Virus record (IMG/VR): IMGVR_UViG_3300038607_000022
DNA from: a virus
Direction: 5' to 3' (one strand)
DNA: 39,122 nt
Both the position numbers and the translations under genes were made by a program. Under the pieces are notes generated by a model that made no database searches, was not told the origin of the DNA, and saw nothing but the letters and a program-made list of their open reading frames with translations. Shown one piece after another: positions 1,790 through 39,122 of the stretch. How positions within the stretch are numbered: the first letter of the stretch is position 1; each line of letters starts with the position of its first letter.

Positions 1790-1913
1790 GGAATAGTATC
1801 GCCGCTCTATATGGGCGGCAATAACACGTATCTAATGCGCAAGCTCGCGCAGTCGCATTTAGGAAGGGTTATTTACTCAACTAAAATAAATACGAAATAA
1901 TTGCATTTTATAC

Positions 1914-1941
1914 TTGATTATATGAAATAGTTGCGTATAAT
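1914..1941 (+). promoter_or_regulatory. Sigma70-type promoter (TTGATT-N16-TATAAT)
   Basis: Hexamers at 1914-1919 and 1936-1941, in the 200-nt gap after ssb and ahead of the 1987 gene block. Confidence 0.55.
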
Positions 1942-3580: not shown

Positions 3581-4077
3581 TGAGTTGGAAAAAAACTTTA
3601 AGCGCTATTGCGCCGACACTGGCAACCGCTTTAGGTGGCCCTATTGCAGGAACTGCCGCTAAATTTATATCTGATAAGTTTCTAGGCGGTGAAAGTGTTA
3701 GTGAAACTGATATTGAGCAGTTTGTTTTAAACGCTAATCCAGAGCAGTTATCTGAAATAAAGAAAGCCGACCATGAATTTAAGTTGCAAATGGAAAAGCT
3801 CGGCGTAGATGTTTTCGCGCTTGAAGTTAAGGATAAGGAAAGCGCTAGAGAGCATAACAAGCAATCGTCTATGCCAGCGGTTTTGTCTGTGTCGCTAACT
3901 GTTGTCATAGGGCTGTTGCTGTATGCTTTGTTTTATATCGAGCCGCCACAAGGCGCTAAGGAGCCATTGCTAATAGTTTTAGGGATGGTTGTAAAAGAAT
4001 GGTCAAACGCTATGCACTTTTGGTTTGGCACAACTAGATCAAGCCAAGACAAAACAAAGCTTATCAAGTATAATTAA
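3580..4077 (+). CDS. Putative holin (3-TM, GTA-type holin-like)
   Basis: Start overlaps the endolysin stop. MSW...GGPIAG N-terminus, central charged helix and C-terminal hydrophobic segments resemble the 3TM holin family. Confidence 0.55.
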   Translation: MSWKKTLSAIAPTLATALGGPIAGTAAKFISDKFLGGESVSETDIEQFVLNANPEQLSEIKKADHEFKLQMEKLGVDVFALEVKDKESAREHNKQSSMPAVLSVSLTVVIGLLLYALFYIEPPQGAKEPLLIVLGMVVKEWSNAMHFWFGTTRSSQDKTKLIKYN

Positions 4078-4177
4078 CTAACCATTAACAAAGAGAGGTA
4101 AATAGTATGACATCAGGTGACGGCAAGAAGCGCACACAGAACAACGAAGAAGAAAAAGAGCAAGAGTAGCTTTCTTC

Positions 4178-4642
4178 ATGTTCGACGCAAAAACAACTAT
4201 ATGCATAATTTTGTTTTGCATGTTGTTTGTAAGAAAAACCCGCAAGGAGTGTTTTATTCTGCTTTGCGGGTATTTTTTATACACATATTTTATTAAAGAC
4301 CTTAGCGCCAATTTTTATTATTCCATTACTGCGCTGCTTAATTTACTTATAGGCCTAGCTGTTTTTCGGCTTAACTTACTTGTCTCGGCATGCTCTTATA
4401 GTCTAGTCTTAGTCAACGTTTATGGCTATTGGCTTTGGTACAGTTATCAAGAACCTACATTGTATGATAATATATCCCTAACAATACTAACAACTCAACT
4501 GGCGCTTATAGTGCAGAAAGGCTTGCTAGATGGAATTGGAAACAATAGCAAACATAATGTGGCTGAGCCTTTTGGCGCTTTTGGCTTTCAACAGAATATT
4601 AAAATGCGTAAGAACCGCAAAGCTAAAGAAGATAATCAATGA
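4178..4642 (+). CDS. Multi-pass membrane protein, function unknown (start uncertain)
   Basis: Four to five hydrophobic segments and a basic C-terminal tail. Located inside the lysis cassette. No clear RBS. Confidence 0.5.
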   Translation: MFDAKTTICIILFCMLFVRKTRKECFILLCGYFLYTYFIKDLSANFYYSITALLNLLIGLAVFRLNLLVSACSYSLVLVNVYGYWLWYSYQEPTLYDNISLTILTTQLALIVQKGLLDGIGNNSKHNVAEPFGAFGFQQNIKMRKNRKAKEDNQ

Positions 4643-26911: not shown

Positions 26912-27406
26912 CATGATCATTGCAACAAGCAATCCGGCGAGGTTATTGGTGACACTGATGTCGGAGATATAACAATAAAAGGCGGCAGGTATTATGCTAA
27001 GGATGCTAGTTATAGAGGCTGGTGCAGCGAAATCAGAAACAGCCCTGTAAAACTTGATGTTTCTGGTTTAATAGTTTTTGCTGAAAATATAGGCACAGAT
27101 ATCATGTTTATGATCGCAGGAATATCAGGCGATTCGGCATCATATAAAAACATAACACTAAATATTAACAGTCAATCCTCATCTGGTATAAATTGCATAT
27201 TCACACGACCTATAAATAGCCTTGTCGGTGTTCAGCACACAGCTAAAATCGAGGGTATTACTTTTGACGGTGCAGGATTAATTGGTAATAATGTTATAGT
27301 ATCAAACCTAATGGACGCTTATATAAATAACTGTAGAGTAACAAGTGCATTGTCGTTTACAGATAACACAGGAGGAACAAGACTTACCTGGGGCGGGGAA
27401 ACATAA
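26912..27406 (+). pseudogene. 5'-truncated beta-helix (tailspike-like) relic
   Basis: The frame is open from 26912. The first in-frame ATG/GTG/TTG is at 27104, yet beta-helix-like sequence (DITIKGGRYY...) continues for 64 codons upstream. An out-of-frame ATG lies at 26913. Confidence 0.45.
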
Positions 27407-27426
27407 AAGACTTTACTATTACAATA

Positions 27427-27454
27427 CCGCTCAATTACTTATAGTATTGAGCGG
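27427..27454. terminator. Bidirectional hairpin between the convergent late and early-left operons
   Basis: CCGCTCAAT-N10-ATTGAGCGG, a 9-bp perfect stem with T-rich sequence on the plus side. Confidence 0.6.
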
Positions 27455-27537
27455 CTTGTAATTTAATCCACTTATTGACTAAACCTCTTTAGTTTTGTAG
27501 TGCGTTTCAATTTCTTTATAGTCTTGCGCTGTTCGTT

Positions 27538-27816: not shown

Positions 27817-28093
27817 TTAATAAACCCTCAACTTGTTTTAATAATTCTTTTTCAGTGCCAAAATTAGCCTCAAAAGACTTTCTTCCGGCATGTACAGCTA
27901 CACCATTGTTACCAGTTCTATGGTGAATGTGGCACAAAGGTATCACTTCAAAATTTGATGCTCTCTTACCCATAGTTCCGTTGCCGATATGGTGTATTTC
28001 TGCTGGCATATCCATAAACCCATGATTGCGACAAACAATGCAGCCAAGAGACGCTACTTTGTCCATGTGTTCTTTTTCTTTTTTATTCGCCAT
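27806..28093 (-). CDS. ref: Ref-like RecA-dependent HNH nuclease
   Basis: LGCIVC...EIHHI...IPLCHIHHRTGNNGVAVHAGRKSFEANFGTEKELL matches the P1 Ref-type pattern. Confidence 0.7.
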   Translation of the reverse strand: MANKKEKEHMDKVASLGCIVCRNHGFMDMPAEIHHIGNGTMGKRASNFEVIPLCHIHHRTGNNGVAVHAGRKSFEANFGTEKELLKQVEGLLNVV

Positions 28094-28286
28094 GCTTCAT
28101 CAACTTCCCTAAAAACCAATGCAAAAACGTCTTTGGAGCACTTCTTTTTTCTCTTATCTTCGCAACGCAAGAGGGGCACAAATAACGATCCTTACGCTTT
28201 TTAAATAACTTTGTTTTGCTTGGTATTACTTCGCGGCATGAGTCACATATAACCGCTTTGTTAAGGCCACGTAAAAATACTTTCAC
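28083..28286 (-). CDS. Zinc-ribbon protein
   Basis: CDSC...CPSC pairs. GTG start preceded by GGAGGGAG. Confidence 0.6.
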   Translation of the reverse strand: MKVFLRGLNKAVICDSCREVIPSKTKLFKKRKDRYLCPSCVAKIREKRSAPKTFLHWFLGKLMKHGE

Positions 28287-28548
28287 TGTTATCTCCCTCC
28301 ACAGGCTTCATGGTTAAGCCTCTTTTTTTCATCTGCGGTATAACTCTATCGCTTAAATGTCTATTGAACTTATCGATTAAGCATTGTGGCTCACCATCGT
28401 ACAGATTCTGCAAAGTATCAATCCAATCAACACTTTCTTTGTATGAATCCAATATTTCAGCGTCAGTAAAGTCATCCCAATGTAATTCTATTTGCTTTTC
28501 TTGCCACTTCTTTGGTAGAAACATTATTATGATTGCTGGTAATTTCAT
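28261..28548 (-). CDS. Hypothetical protein
   Basis: GGAG RBS. Part of the operon chain. Confidence 0.6.
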   Translation of the reverse strand: MKLPAIIIMFLPKKWQEKQIELHWDDFTDAEILDSYKESVDWIDTLQNLYDGEPQCLIDKFNRHLSDRVIPQMKKRGLTMKPVEGDNSESIFTWP

Positions 28549-29616: not shown

Positions 29617-29711
29617 AACATACACCAAACAACAAAAGTAATTAAAATTACATTCAATGTAAAAAATATTACCTGCTGCCTTCTAGCTTTTAAATTATCG
29701 TCGTGTCTCAT
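29613..29711 (-). CDS. Micro membrane protein (32 aa), below the ORF-track cutoff
   Basis: ATGA overlap with the upstream gene. One hydrophobic segment (VIFFTLNVILITFVVWCML). Confidence 0.4.
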   Translation of the reverse strand: MRHDDNLKARRQQVIFFTLNVILITFVVWCML

Positions 29712-29884
29712 AATTCAAATTCCTTCTCGATTTCTGCCAGCTCTTTTTGATGTTCTAGCAATCTACGGCGCTCTGTTTTTTCTTTCGCTGTTTGAGTCTG
29801 GCGTCTTGGCGTCATGCTCTCAGCGTTAAGGGTTTTATAAAATGTTGCGAACTCCGCTTGTGTTAGTGTGTTTGCGTTACTCAT
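29708..29884 (-). CDS. Hypothetical charged protein (58 aa)
   Basis: ATG 29884 is preceded by AGGAGA. The track start at 29920 is GTG with no RBS. Confidence 0.6.
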   Translation of the reverse strand: MSNANTLTQAEFATFYKTLNAESMTPRRQTQTAKEKTERRRLLEHQKELAEIEKEFEL

Positions 29885-29940
29885 TTCACTTATCTCCTGC
29901 TGTTTTATTAAACTTAGCACAATAAATACAGTAATGTGGT

Positions 29941-29968
29941 TTGACCAGTGAGATTATTTTGCTATTAT
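29941..29968 (+). promoter_or_regulatory. Sigma70 promoter on the plus strand inside the leftward operon (TTGACC-N16-TATTAT)
   Basis: Hexamers at 29941-29946 and 29963-29968. Points away from all neighbouring genes. Confidence 0.55.
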
Positions 29969-29974
29969 TGAGTT

Positions 29975-30042
29975 GAAACTTTTATCTCCAGTTTCTATCG
30001 ATGTTTCGCCCGGTCGTGGTTAGTTGGTGGCCGGGCTTTTTT
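29975..30042 (+). ncRNA. Candidate antisense small RNA of about 67 nt
   Basis: Runs from the predicted start to the GCCCGG-N17-CCGGGC hairpin plus T6 (30008-30042). 5' hairpin GAAAC-N11-GTTTC. Contains no ORF. Confidence 0.5.
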
Positions 30043-30076
30043 ATAACCCTCACTAACAAGGACGCAAGCGCCTTGT
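30040..30076 (-). promoter_or_regulatory. Conserved hairpin-plus-tail element, copy 2
   Basis: The minus strand reads ACAAGG-CGCTTGCGT-CCTTGT TAGTGAGGGTTATAAA. Starts 10 nt after the stop of the 30086..30340 gene. Confidence 0.5.
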
Positions 30077-30085
30077 AGTTTCGAG

Positions 30086-30340
30086 TTATGTGTTCTTCCC
30101 AATGTTATAAATAGTTGCAACCTGCGAATCATTAAGTCCGCGCTTTTTCGCTCCTTCTAAAGCATTTATTACCGTTTGCACTCCATGGTGGTAAATATCC
30201 AACTCTTCGGCATCATGGTATCCACCAAGGTAATCTAAACACCCTTTAGCTATTGCTATGGCATCATCAAAACACATAACAACAGGCTCAATCGGACTTG
30301 CTGTAGTTGGGTTTTTATCTTCGTCTTGCATCTTCGTCAT
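30086..30340 (-). CDS. Hypothetical protein (start may be ATG 30331)
   Basis: Same-strand ORF. AAGGA sits closer to optimal spacing for the second ATG. Confidence 0.6.
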   Translation of the reverse strand: MTKMQDEDKNPTTASPIEPVVMCFDDAIAIAKGCLDYLGGYHDAEELDIYHHGVQTVINALEGAKKRGLNDSQVATIYNIGKNT

Positions 30341-35445: not shown

Positions 35446-35531
35446 TTTATTCTCCAATAAATTATTCACACCCCAAACTCTACAACAAAAAATAGCGTTA
35501 TGTGATCCGACCAGTTAAATTAAATTTATAG

Positions 35532-35560
35532 TTGATTTATTGCGCAGGATTGGCGATAAT
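35532..35560 (+). promoter_or_regulatory. Rightward sigma70 promoter (TTGATT-N17-GATAAT)
   Basis: Hexamers at 35532-35537 and 35555-35560 in the 570-bp divergent intergenic region. Confidence 0.5.
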
Positions 35561-35566
35561 TTATTT

Positions 35567-35670
35567 GTTATTTGGAGTCGTGTCTGAATGATGAATAAGG
35601 TTTTATAGGTATTTCTGGCATTAACGACGATTAATGCACACGACCAGAGATACCCATAAAGCCTTTTTTA
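35567..35670 (+). ncRNA. Leader RNA or sRNA candidate: 22-bp hairpin plus T-run, with a 6-codon mini-ORF
   Basis: 35597-35618 pairs with 35644-35665 (19 Watson-Crick pairs, 2 G-U, 1 mismatch). Inner hairpin 35619-35636. TTTTTTATTA tail. Mini-ORF ATGATGAATAAGGTTTTATAG at 35588-35608. Confidence 0.5.
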
Positions 35671-36040
35671 TTACCTCAAATTCCCTCCAAGCAACATGCA
35701 ATTGCTGTAAAGCCGATTCGGGCATTGCATTATAAATCTGATACTGAGTTACTAGTACAATCAGACAGTGCGGCAATGTTTAAGCTGAGAGCCTATATTG
35801 GATTAATCCTTGGGTGATACTCAATAGTTTAAACGTGGAAAGCTCTGCTAGTGTCGAAAGATAAAAAGTTTCCAACCAGAAAGAAAGATTCTGGCCTTCA
35901 AAGCTCTACAGACCGCTAGGTTATTGCTAGAAGTGAAAAGCCTTTAGTTGAATTTTAATAATTCTCTTTAGGCTTATTATGCCTTTAAGATACGACATAG
36001 GTTTTGCTAGACACTTATCTATAACTAATAAGGTGATTAA

Positions 36041-38297: not shown

Positions 38298-38422
38298 TTA
38301 CAAAATACAGAATAATCGAAGGCCGTTATCATCTTTACAAAATGCGCGGTTATAGACGCTCATTTATTGCCAGCTTTAAGAGTGAAAAGAAGATGAATGA
38401 TTTTATTAGAGATAGTAAGTAA
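38294..38422 (+). CDS. Hypothetical basic protein (42 aa), below the ORF-track cutoff
   Basis: ATGA overlap with the upstream ORF. 43 codons read by hand. Confidence 0.4.
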   Translation: MITKYRIIEGRYHLYKMRGYRRSFIASFKSEKKMNDFIRDSK

Positions 38423-38426
38423 CTCG

Positions 38427-38457
38427 CCACCTTAAGAGGTTTATCCTCTTGAAGTGG
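38427..38457 (+). terminator. Strong hairpin (13-bp stem with 1 mismatch and 1 G-U) after the 38294 ORF
   Basis: CCACCTTAAGAGG-TTTAT-CCTCTTGAAGTGG followed by ATGTTATGTGTT. Confidence 0.5.
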
Positions 38458-38493
38458 ATGTTATGTGTTAATTAATTGATTGGAGAGAAAACC

Positions 38494-38736
38494 ATGATTA
38501 AAAGAAAAGGACAGATAGTTCCTAAATATTTATGCAGAAGCATAGAGAAAAAGGCTCAACATCTGGTTAAATTTGGTGCTGATGTTGAAATAACCGGAAA
38601 AACAATAAAGATGCTAACTGATGGGTATGCTATTTGTATTCCAGACGTTAAGCATGTGTTGAAAAAGAAGAACCAGAGAACTGTAAAAGGGTTTGTTTGT
38701 GAAGGGCTAACGCTGATTGGGTACAGAGAAACATAA
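38494..38736 (+). CDS. Hypothetical protein (80 aa)
   Basis: ATG 38494 is preceded by GGAGAG. The track start at 38476 is TTG. Confidence 0.6.
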   Translation: MIKRKGQIVPKYLCRSIEKKAQHLVKFGADVEITGKTIKMLTDGYAICIPDVKHVLKKKNQRTVKGFVCEGLTLIGYRET

Positions 38737-38814
38737 CCTTTTAAATAAGCGGGCGCGGCTGTTTGCGCTCCGTTTGATTTTGTTGTTAGCAGTGAAATAG
38801 CGAGGCACAGCATT

Positions 38815-38976
38815 ATGATATGTAACACATGCAAGTTTAAAAGCGATTGCCAGAAAGCAACTGAAAACGGTAATTGTAGATATTACGAAAAACAAGAGGG
38901 TACGCCCATTAACGAGCACCCTCTAAAAAATGAAATTATAGATAAAATTAAAAGTGGTGAAATAGTTTTTAGCTAA
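38815..38976 (+). CDS. Small Cys-rich protein (53 aa), below the ORF-track cutoff
   Basis: GAGG 9 nt upstream. Cys pattern CNTC...C...C. Preferred over the antisense ORF 38707..38919 because it shares the strand of all neighbours. Confidence 0.45.
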   Translation: MICNTCKFKSDCQKATENGNCRYYEKQEGTPINEHPLKNEIIDKIKSGEIVFS

Positions 38977-38995
38977 TTCCTGCTAACACGTAATT

Positions 38996-39122
38996 ACGGA
39001 GCGCTTGCGTCTCCGTTAATGAGGGTTATGAACTCATCGGAGCAGTTAAATAGAGTTTATGTAGTAATATAAATCTAAAGCTTAACTAGAGATAAGAAAA
39101 TGAAAACAATACAAGATACAGA
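38996..39122. repeat. Terminal direct repeat, identical to 1-127
   Basis: Exact identity with the window start. Confidence 0.95.

Follow-up and report, generated by a model that had tools for sequence, protein, structure and literature searches.

The OOP RNA of phage λ is a 77-nt transcript with its own promoter, pO, and its own terminator, tO, which pairs with operon mRNA and leads to RNase III cleavage (PMC5869508, PMC12197685). Phage P22 makes sar, a 68/69-nt antisense RNA from the intercistronic region of a phage operon (PMC12197685). A third point of comparison for the locus described here is the phage moron, an inserted unit that carries its own promoter and terminator (PMC7067206).

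We analysed a 39,122-nt stretch of viral DNA (IMG/VR record IMGVR_UViG_3300038607_000022), referred to throughout as the window. The original prediction for this DNA had described a self-contained promoter-to-terminator unit on the plus strand, antisense to the leftward operon and recalling OOP and sar. The strength of the signals, their orientation, their position and their conservation in a second haplotype, L019, all speak for such a unit, which nevertheless remains a predicted one. Our preferred interpretation, a tentative one that we hold at a little under an even chance, is that it would encode an OOP-like cis-antisense RNA of ~66 nt opposing the leftward replication and recombination operon.

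The likeness to OOP is one of architecture. The predicted RNA is short (~66 nt against 77 nt), has a constitutive-type promoter and an intrinsic terminator of its own, opposes an early operon at a gene junction and is perfectly complementary to the operon mRNA. However, OOP shares 52 nt with the 3' end of cII and has its promoter within gene O, whereas the predicted RNA lies wholly in an untranslated spacer; there is also no sequence or Rfam similarity between the two, and the unit behaves as a presence/absence cassette. Size, antisense orientation and intercistronic position are likewise shared with sar, but sar pairs with the ribosome-binding site of ant and the predicted RNA stops ~77 nt upstream (in the mRNA sense) of the Shine-Dalgarno (SD) sequence of the downstream gene. 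Of the parallels originally drawn, then, the OOP architecture stands, though with no overlap of a coding sequence and no Rfam match, and the sar mode of action does not fit, the ribosome-binding site being left uncovered. Like a moron, the unit is a self-contained transcription unit between two genes that is present in some relatives and missing from others; unlike one, it has no ORF, is only 86 nt long, opposes the operon it sits in and borrows its -35 hexamer from the flanking DNA.

The phage genome and its probable host

The window is a circularly assembled metagenomic phage genome. Its two ends (1-127 and 38996-39122) are identical over 127 nt, an overlap left by the assembly of a genome that is circular or terminally redundant, and its unique length is 38,995 bp. 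Plus-strand genes run from ~36.0 kb through the wrap to 27.4 kb and include a PAPS-reductase-like gene, small ORFs, the terminase and structural genes. The leftward operon occupies the minus strand from ~35.2 kb to 27.5 kb and encodes an O-like replication initiator, an HNH endonuclease, a C5 DNA methylase, many small ORFs, and NinB-like, Ref-like nuclease and resolvase-like proteins. Nowhere in the window did we recognise a repressor, an integrase, a cII-like gene or a lysogeny module.

Near and distant searches of GenBank phages found no DNA similarity to the window, and a host search with TerL gave nothing beyond a 43-residue match to an Aliivibrio MAG. The closest phage matches of the NinB-like protein are from Pseudoalteromonas and Vibrio phages (40-51% amino acid identity), so the host is likely to be a marine gamma-proteobacterium, in which the usual rules for sigma-70 promoters and intrinsic terminators would be expected to apply. 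The SD-led genes and canonical terminators of the window also fit these rules.

The ~570 nt between the divergent operons (35470-36040) hold no ORF of at least 45 aa except a doubtful 51-aa frame, and no strong sigma-70 match was found there on the minus strand. At 4046-4278 there is a bidirectional terminator, with a hairpin (4236-4272) that has an A-run before it and a T-run after it and is preceded by AAGACA-N17-TATAAT at 4046; it overlaps listed ORF 4178-4642, perhaps a spurious frame and perhaps the gene of a small hydrophobic peptide.

A predicted promoter and a terminator opposing the leftward operon

We defined a sigma-70 extended -10 promoter as a TTGACA-like -35 and a TGnTATAAT-like -10 separated by 16-18 bp. 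The sequence TTGACC-N16-TGcTATTAT (29941-29968, plus strand) has all of these parts and scores 10/12 as a predicted promoter, with the -35 hexamer at 29941-29946 and the extended -10 at 29960-29968 (TATTAT at 29963-29968, TG at 29960-61). Both hexamers had been placed correctly in the original prediction, to which the TG, and hence the extended -10, is an addition. Across both strands (78 kb), 18 promoter-like sites score at least 10/12, and only two of them, this one included, carry the TG. The 16-nt spacer is 1 nt below the optimum, which weighs against the antisense-RNA reading. A minus-strand promoter back-to-back with the unit, TGGTCA-N17-TATTGT, was considered and rejected, as it scores only 8/12 and the key A of its -10 is lost in L019.

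The terminator begins 39 nt downstream of the end of the promoter and occupies 30008-30042 on the plus strand. It consists of GCCCGG (30008-13), N17, CCGGGC (30031-36) and a T6 run (30037-42), as had been predicted. RNA folding extends the stem to 10 pairs through G-U pairs, giving, over the two unit-bearing haplotypes, a stem of 10-12 bp and a loop of 5-7 nt ahead of the T6, and in the terminator scan the 45 nt before the T-run fold at -16.1 kcal/mol. An intrinsic terminator was taken to be a GC-rich stem of 5-14 bp, closed by a short loop, with a U-tract directly after it in the strand that is transcribed; 30008-30042 has this form on the plus strand only. Read on the minus strand, the hairpin (30008-30036) runs into GAAACATCG (GAAACAUCG), with no U-tract, and can therefore be used as a terminator on the plus strand only, which bears out the earlier view that it is oriented for this unit and not for the surrounding genes.

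How often such signals arise by chance was gauged against dinucleotide shuffles of the genome. Terminators of -15.5 kcal/mol or better number three in the 38,995-bp genome, compared with 0.31 per shuffled genome, and 0/100 shuffles reached three. Under a loose definition of a promoter-then-terminator pair (promoter score 10/12 or higher, terminator -12 kcal/mol or better and 20-250 nt downstream of the promoter), shuffled genomes held 0.14 pairs each. Because strong terminators and promoter-terminator pairs are both this rare in shuffled sequence, a coincidental unit is unlikely, though not impossible.

A different reading of the same signals takes only the terminator, facing as it does along the plus strand, to be functional. 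Its role would be to stop antisense transcripts from entering the leftward operon, whether read-through from the late operon, which ends at 27406, or transcripts starting at spurious AT-rich promoters, and the promoter match would be incidental. We regard this as unlikely, but several observations fit it. Two of the three strongest terminators in the genome, those at 30037 (+) and 38892 (-), oppose their local genes. The convergent junction (27407-27537) has only an imperfect terminator, the late operon ending with a weak hairpin. Additionally, three NinB-bearing marine phage contigs have antisense-facing, terminator-like hairpins with T-runs in or near early-operon gaps with no convincing promoter upstream (L008 3933-3957, L011 3733-3761 and L032 ~2200-2229, all minus strand), and the L008 and L011 examples therefore make a terminator-only role possible. 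As a general theme, an antisense terminator upstream of ninB was rejected: L008 and L011 have one and Pseudoalteromonas phage Pq0 does not. Against the terminator-only reading, the promoter is top-ranked, carries the TG and is unchanged in L019, and polymerases from the late operon would first have to travel 2.6 kb antisense. A terminator, moreover, requires ~35 nt, whereas the indel block described below is 86 nt and carries the -10.

The predicted RNA

Transcription from the promoter would be expected to start 7-8 nt past the -10, at G29975 or A29976, and to end within the T-tract, giving a putative non-coding RNA of ~64-68 nt (29975-30042, plus strand). The 68-nt form folds at -20.6 kcal/mol (z = -2.9). 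At its 5' end is the small hairpin that had been predicted, GAAAC-N11-GTTTC (29975-29995, plus strand), with GAAAC at 29975-79, GTTTC at 29991-95 and the loop UUUUAUCUCCA; the CUCC stretch noted earlier also exists, at 29986-89. GAAAC has an alternative plus-strand partner, GUUUC at 30003-30007, and this pairing is conserved in L019.

No conserved ORF is present. The sole frame on the plus strand is one of 25 codons beginning with ATG (30001-30078), which has no SD, continues past the terminator and has just 9 codons in L019; a plus-strand peptide was rejected on the strength of this truncation, and the earlier statement that the RNA has no ORF holds in effect.

Nothing in the whole window matched Rfam at the gathering score, and the best sub-threshold matches (E = 0.011 and 0.71) rest on the terminator alone. 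There is a weak likeness to RF02278 (a toxic sRNA of Betaproteobacteria) and RF02837 (anti-hemB), in which a U(A/G)UCUCC motif likewise precedes a GCCCGG...CCGGGC terminator with a U-tract. However, these terminator-driven scores of 15.9 and 20.3 bits compare with gathering scores of 50 and 49.5, and the unit is a member of neither family. No tRNA or tmRNA was found. The loop UUAUCUCC has an 8-nt match to GGAGAUAA, the SD of the 58-aa gene, and also matches the SDs of two further leftward genes, but trans targeting of SD sequences was rejected as not significant, since 70% of shuffled RNAs match phage start sites equally well.

Position within the leftward operon

The predicted RNA lies opposite an untranslated spacer of 201 nt (29885-30085, minus strand), its presumed cis target and the largest gap in the leftward operon, where the other gaps are no longer than 75 nt. 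Upstream, the spacer borders an 84-aa gene (30086-30340, minus strand), whose stop is at 30086; downstream lies a 58-aa gene (29708-29898, minus strand) with the SD AGGAGA at 29898-29893 and its ATG at 29884. Orientation and position thus agree with the original placing of the unit antisense to the leader between these two genes. An orphan SD-like sequence, again GGAGAUAA, is also found within the spacer at 29989-29982 on the minus strand.

The 58-aa gene is under purifying selection, with 95% amino acid identity in L019 and 53% in L033. Its product has no family matches. A type I toxin-antitoxin arrangement was rejected, as the product is highly charged and hydrophilic and has no hydrophobic segment.

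The predicted RNA overlaps no ORF, and the ribosome-binding site and start codon of the 58-aa gene are outside the transcribed segment. A regulatory consequence is therefore not obvious, and any effect would have to fall on the integrity of the mRNA or on its continuation into the segment encoding the 58-aa, NinB-like, Ref-like and resolvase-like proteins.

Conservation in L019 and absence from L033

Exact-protein look-ups recovered contigs identical to the window phage in ENA, JGI and Logan assemblies and one second haplotype only. Source runs and samples of the contigs are SRR5439156-64, ERZ272962xx and JGI 33000383xx-386xx. Scans of IMG/VR and JGI metagenomes with the terminator, promoter, RNA body, hairpin element and 58-aa protein gave nothing related, the two matches from the metagenome scan being unrelated GC-rich terminators. 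For the 58-aa gene, the near relative is the L019/L025/L026 haplotype and the distant one is L033. The closest homologue of the upstream gene, in L012 (72% amino acid identity), is followed by an unrelated region from which the unit is absent. In the databases searched, then, the haplotypes that bear the unit are the window and L019.

L019 is a mosaic of the window phage, with 92% homology over 29708-30094, up to the stop codon of the upstream gene, in L019 another gene than the 84-aa one of the window. Taken over all the segments that the two share, the difference is 12.8% at third codon positions and ~5.5% at first and second positions. L019 has no change anywhere in 29941-29991, from the -35 hexamer through the spacer and the -10 to the start region and the initial 17 nt of the predicted RNA. 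For the 34-nt promoter, the absence of any change has a probability of ~0.01 at the third-codon rate of 12.8% but ~0.1 at the leader's own rate of ~6%; with two unit-bearing haplotypes only, conservation is therefore weak evidence. Three changes fall in the leader within 29900-29932.

The outer six stem pairs and the T-tract of the terminator are unchanged in L019, and five substitutions (30018, 30022, 30024, 30026 and 30030) fall in the upper stem and loop. Their effect on the plus strand is to turn an interrupted stem of 10 pairs into 12 contiguous pairs with a 5-nt loop. Counted over these two haplotypes only, the terminator helix pairs in 23/24 cells on the plus strand and 16/24 on the minus strand, the plus strand pairing better because several of the pairs are G-U. 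This is suggestive, and only suggestive, of the big hairpin belonging to the plus strand. For the small 5' hairpin the balance, again from two haplotypes only, is 11/12 cells on the plus strand and 12/12 on the minus strand: L019 has changes at 29992 and 29996, in the 3' arm, through which one plus-strand pair becomes A-C and its minus-strand counterpart stays paired as G-U. The 5' hairpin as first described is thus present in sequence but weakened in L019 on the strand to which it had been assigned and intact on the other. Between the window and L019, no pair of either hairpin changes on both sides.

The homologous leader of L033 provides a further comparison. It consists of the hairpin element followed by ...AUCUNACUGGUC...GUAUUUAUU.GCUA...AGGAGAUAA..AUG, and it is missing a block of 86 nt (~29954-30039, edges +/- ~3 nt) that the window and L019 both have. 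This block takes in the -10, all of the predicted RNA and the terminator, while the -35 belongs to the shared flank and reads CCGACC in L033. As L033 has the leader without the 86-nt block, the unit is an accessory presence/absence cassette and not an integral part of the leader.

These comparisons bear on another explanation, in which the spacer acts on the minus strand. Here the hairpin element, the GC hairpin, the small hairpin and the orphan SD would make up a structured mRNA leader through which the 58-aa gene is controlled at the level of processing, stability or translation, and the plus-strand signals would be by-products. We consider this quite improbable. The minus-strand spacer does fold better than shuffled sequence (z = -2.7), the small hairpin retains all six of its pairs on that strand, with an A-to-G change giving the G-U, and the adjacent hairpin element is clearly oriented for the mRNA. 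The upper half of the GC hairpin, however, pairs on the plus strand only, the A6 tract upstream of this hairpin has no known mRNA-sense role, no minus-strand promoter or U-tract was found, and the same gene in L033 has a leader that does without the 86-nt block.

They also bear on whether the unit is functional at all. It could be the leftover of a deleted moron of the opposite strand, or a chance promoter-like site beside a stray hairpin in AT-rich DNA. In keeping with this, 12% of shuffled genomes contain at least one promoter-terminator pair under the loose criteria given above, the unit is missing from L033 and L012, and the databases searched yielded no further relatives. Yet the terminator belongs to a class far above chance expectation, both signals are intact in two haplotypes that are ~13% apart at third codon positions, and the substitutions in the stem keep or lengthen its pairing; a relic or a coincidence seems improbable to us.

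The adjacent hairpin element and a second antisense-facing terminator

The T-tract of the terminator adjoins a conserved hairpin element of ~60 nt (30038-30097, minus strand) that overlaps the stop codon of the 84-aa gene, in agreement with the earlier remark that the unit abuts a second copy of such an element. In the mRNA sense the element runs AACACRUAAY, a 6-bp stem, the loop CGCUUGCGU, the complementary stem and UURRUGAGGKKUUAU (as DNA, AACACRTAAY, loop CGCTTGCGT and 3' part TTRRTGAGGKKTTAT). The loop holds an inner G(CUUG)C tetraloop, and AACACRUAAY spans the final codons of the upstream gene together with its stop, so that non-homologous upstream genes all end (N/E)-T-stop because of the element. 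Its stems, ACAAGG/CCUUGU, ACGGAG/CUCCGU and AUCGGG/CCCGAU, are three different and perfectly complementary ones, and four of eight pairs change on both sides.

A covariance model found copies in the window at 30038-30097 (-), 38978-39034 (+) and, more weakly, 1817-1877 (+), and in relatives at L019 3825-3884 and 5672-5733 and L033 751-812. All copies are in the sense of the local genes and at mosaic joints, with one copy per early operon. The element may serve as a nut-like site, as a processing site or as a linker in recombination. In L019 (5367-5800), a homologue of the rightward 86-aa gene (98% nucleotide identity) is joined directly, by way of a copy of the element, to a homologue of the leftward 67-aa gene; in the window the corresponding regions are 38420-38756 and 28083-28296, the difference being one of module inversion or exchange with the element at the joint. 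The weak third copy is followed ~40 nt downstream by TTGATT-N16-TATAAT (1914-1941, plus strand; 10/12). Situated ahead of the ATG at 1988 in a gap of 230 nt, this sequence is a candidate late or middle promoter for the sense strand.

About 70 nt from the copy at 39 kb is a second antisense-facing terminator (38925-38888, minus strand; -15.8 kcal/mol), in the rightward operon and inside the 53-aa ORF 38815-38976. Upstream of it is TTCACC-N15-TATAAT, the -10 of which is only 11 nt before the hairpin. With 38958-38888 (-), the opposite early operon could have an antisense unit of its own, a minimal one. Homology between it and the unit at 30 kb was rejected, as their alignment was unconvincing. 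A more far-reaching idea, which we think very improbable and offer as speculation, is that the 86-nt block is a portable antisense-RNA cassette, composed of -10, RNA body and terminator, that lands at the 3' edge of the hairpin element and recruits a -35 from the flank; together with the 38958-38888 unit, such short convergent units might limit or time both early operons of this phage group at nut-like punctuation sites.

A model for the antisense unit

Returning to the OOP-like interpretation, we envisage that the host sigma-70 RNA polymerase would start at ~29975 and stop at the hairpin and U6 of 30008-30042, releasing an RNA of ~66 nt. Along its full length the RNA would be complementary to the polycistronic leftward mRNA, within the untranslated spacer that immediately precedes the 58-aa gene. 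It would most likely act in cis, as OOP does: RNase III would cleave the RNA:mRNA duplex, or the duplex would be destabilised in some other way, and leftward polymerases would additionally meet interference from convergent transcription started at the antisense promoter. The distal genes, encoding the 58-aa, NinB-like, Ref-like nuclease and resolvase proteins, would then be expected to fall in expression relative to the proximal ones.

The practical value of the unit would be modest, because antisense RNAs in phage early operons are already a known kind. The neighbouring covarying hairpin element, found at mosaic joints of both early operons, may be the more interesting of the two, and may tell more about genome punctuation and recombination. 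If the RNA is made, a marine-type phage lineage without a cultured representative would have an antisense regulator of the OOP style. The unit would then also be a clean natural example of an sRNA gene gained or lost as an 86-nt cassette, and as such would help in studying how the sRNA genes of phages originate.
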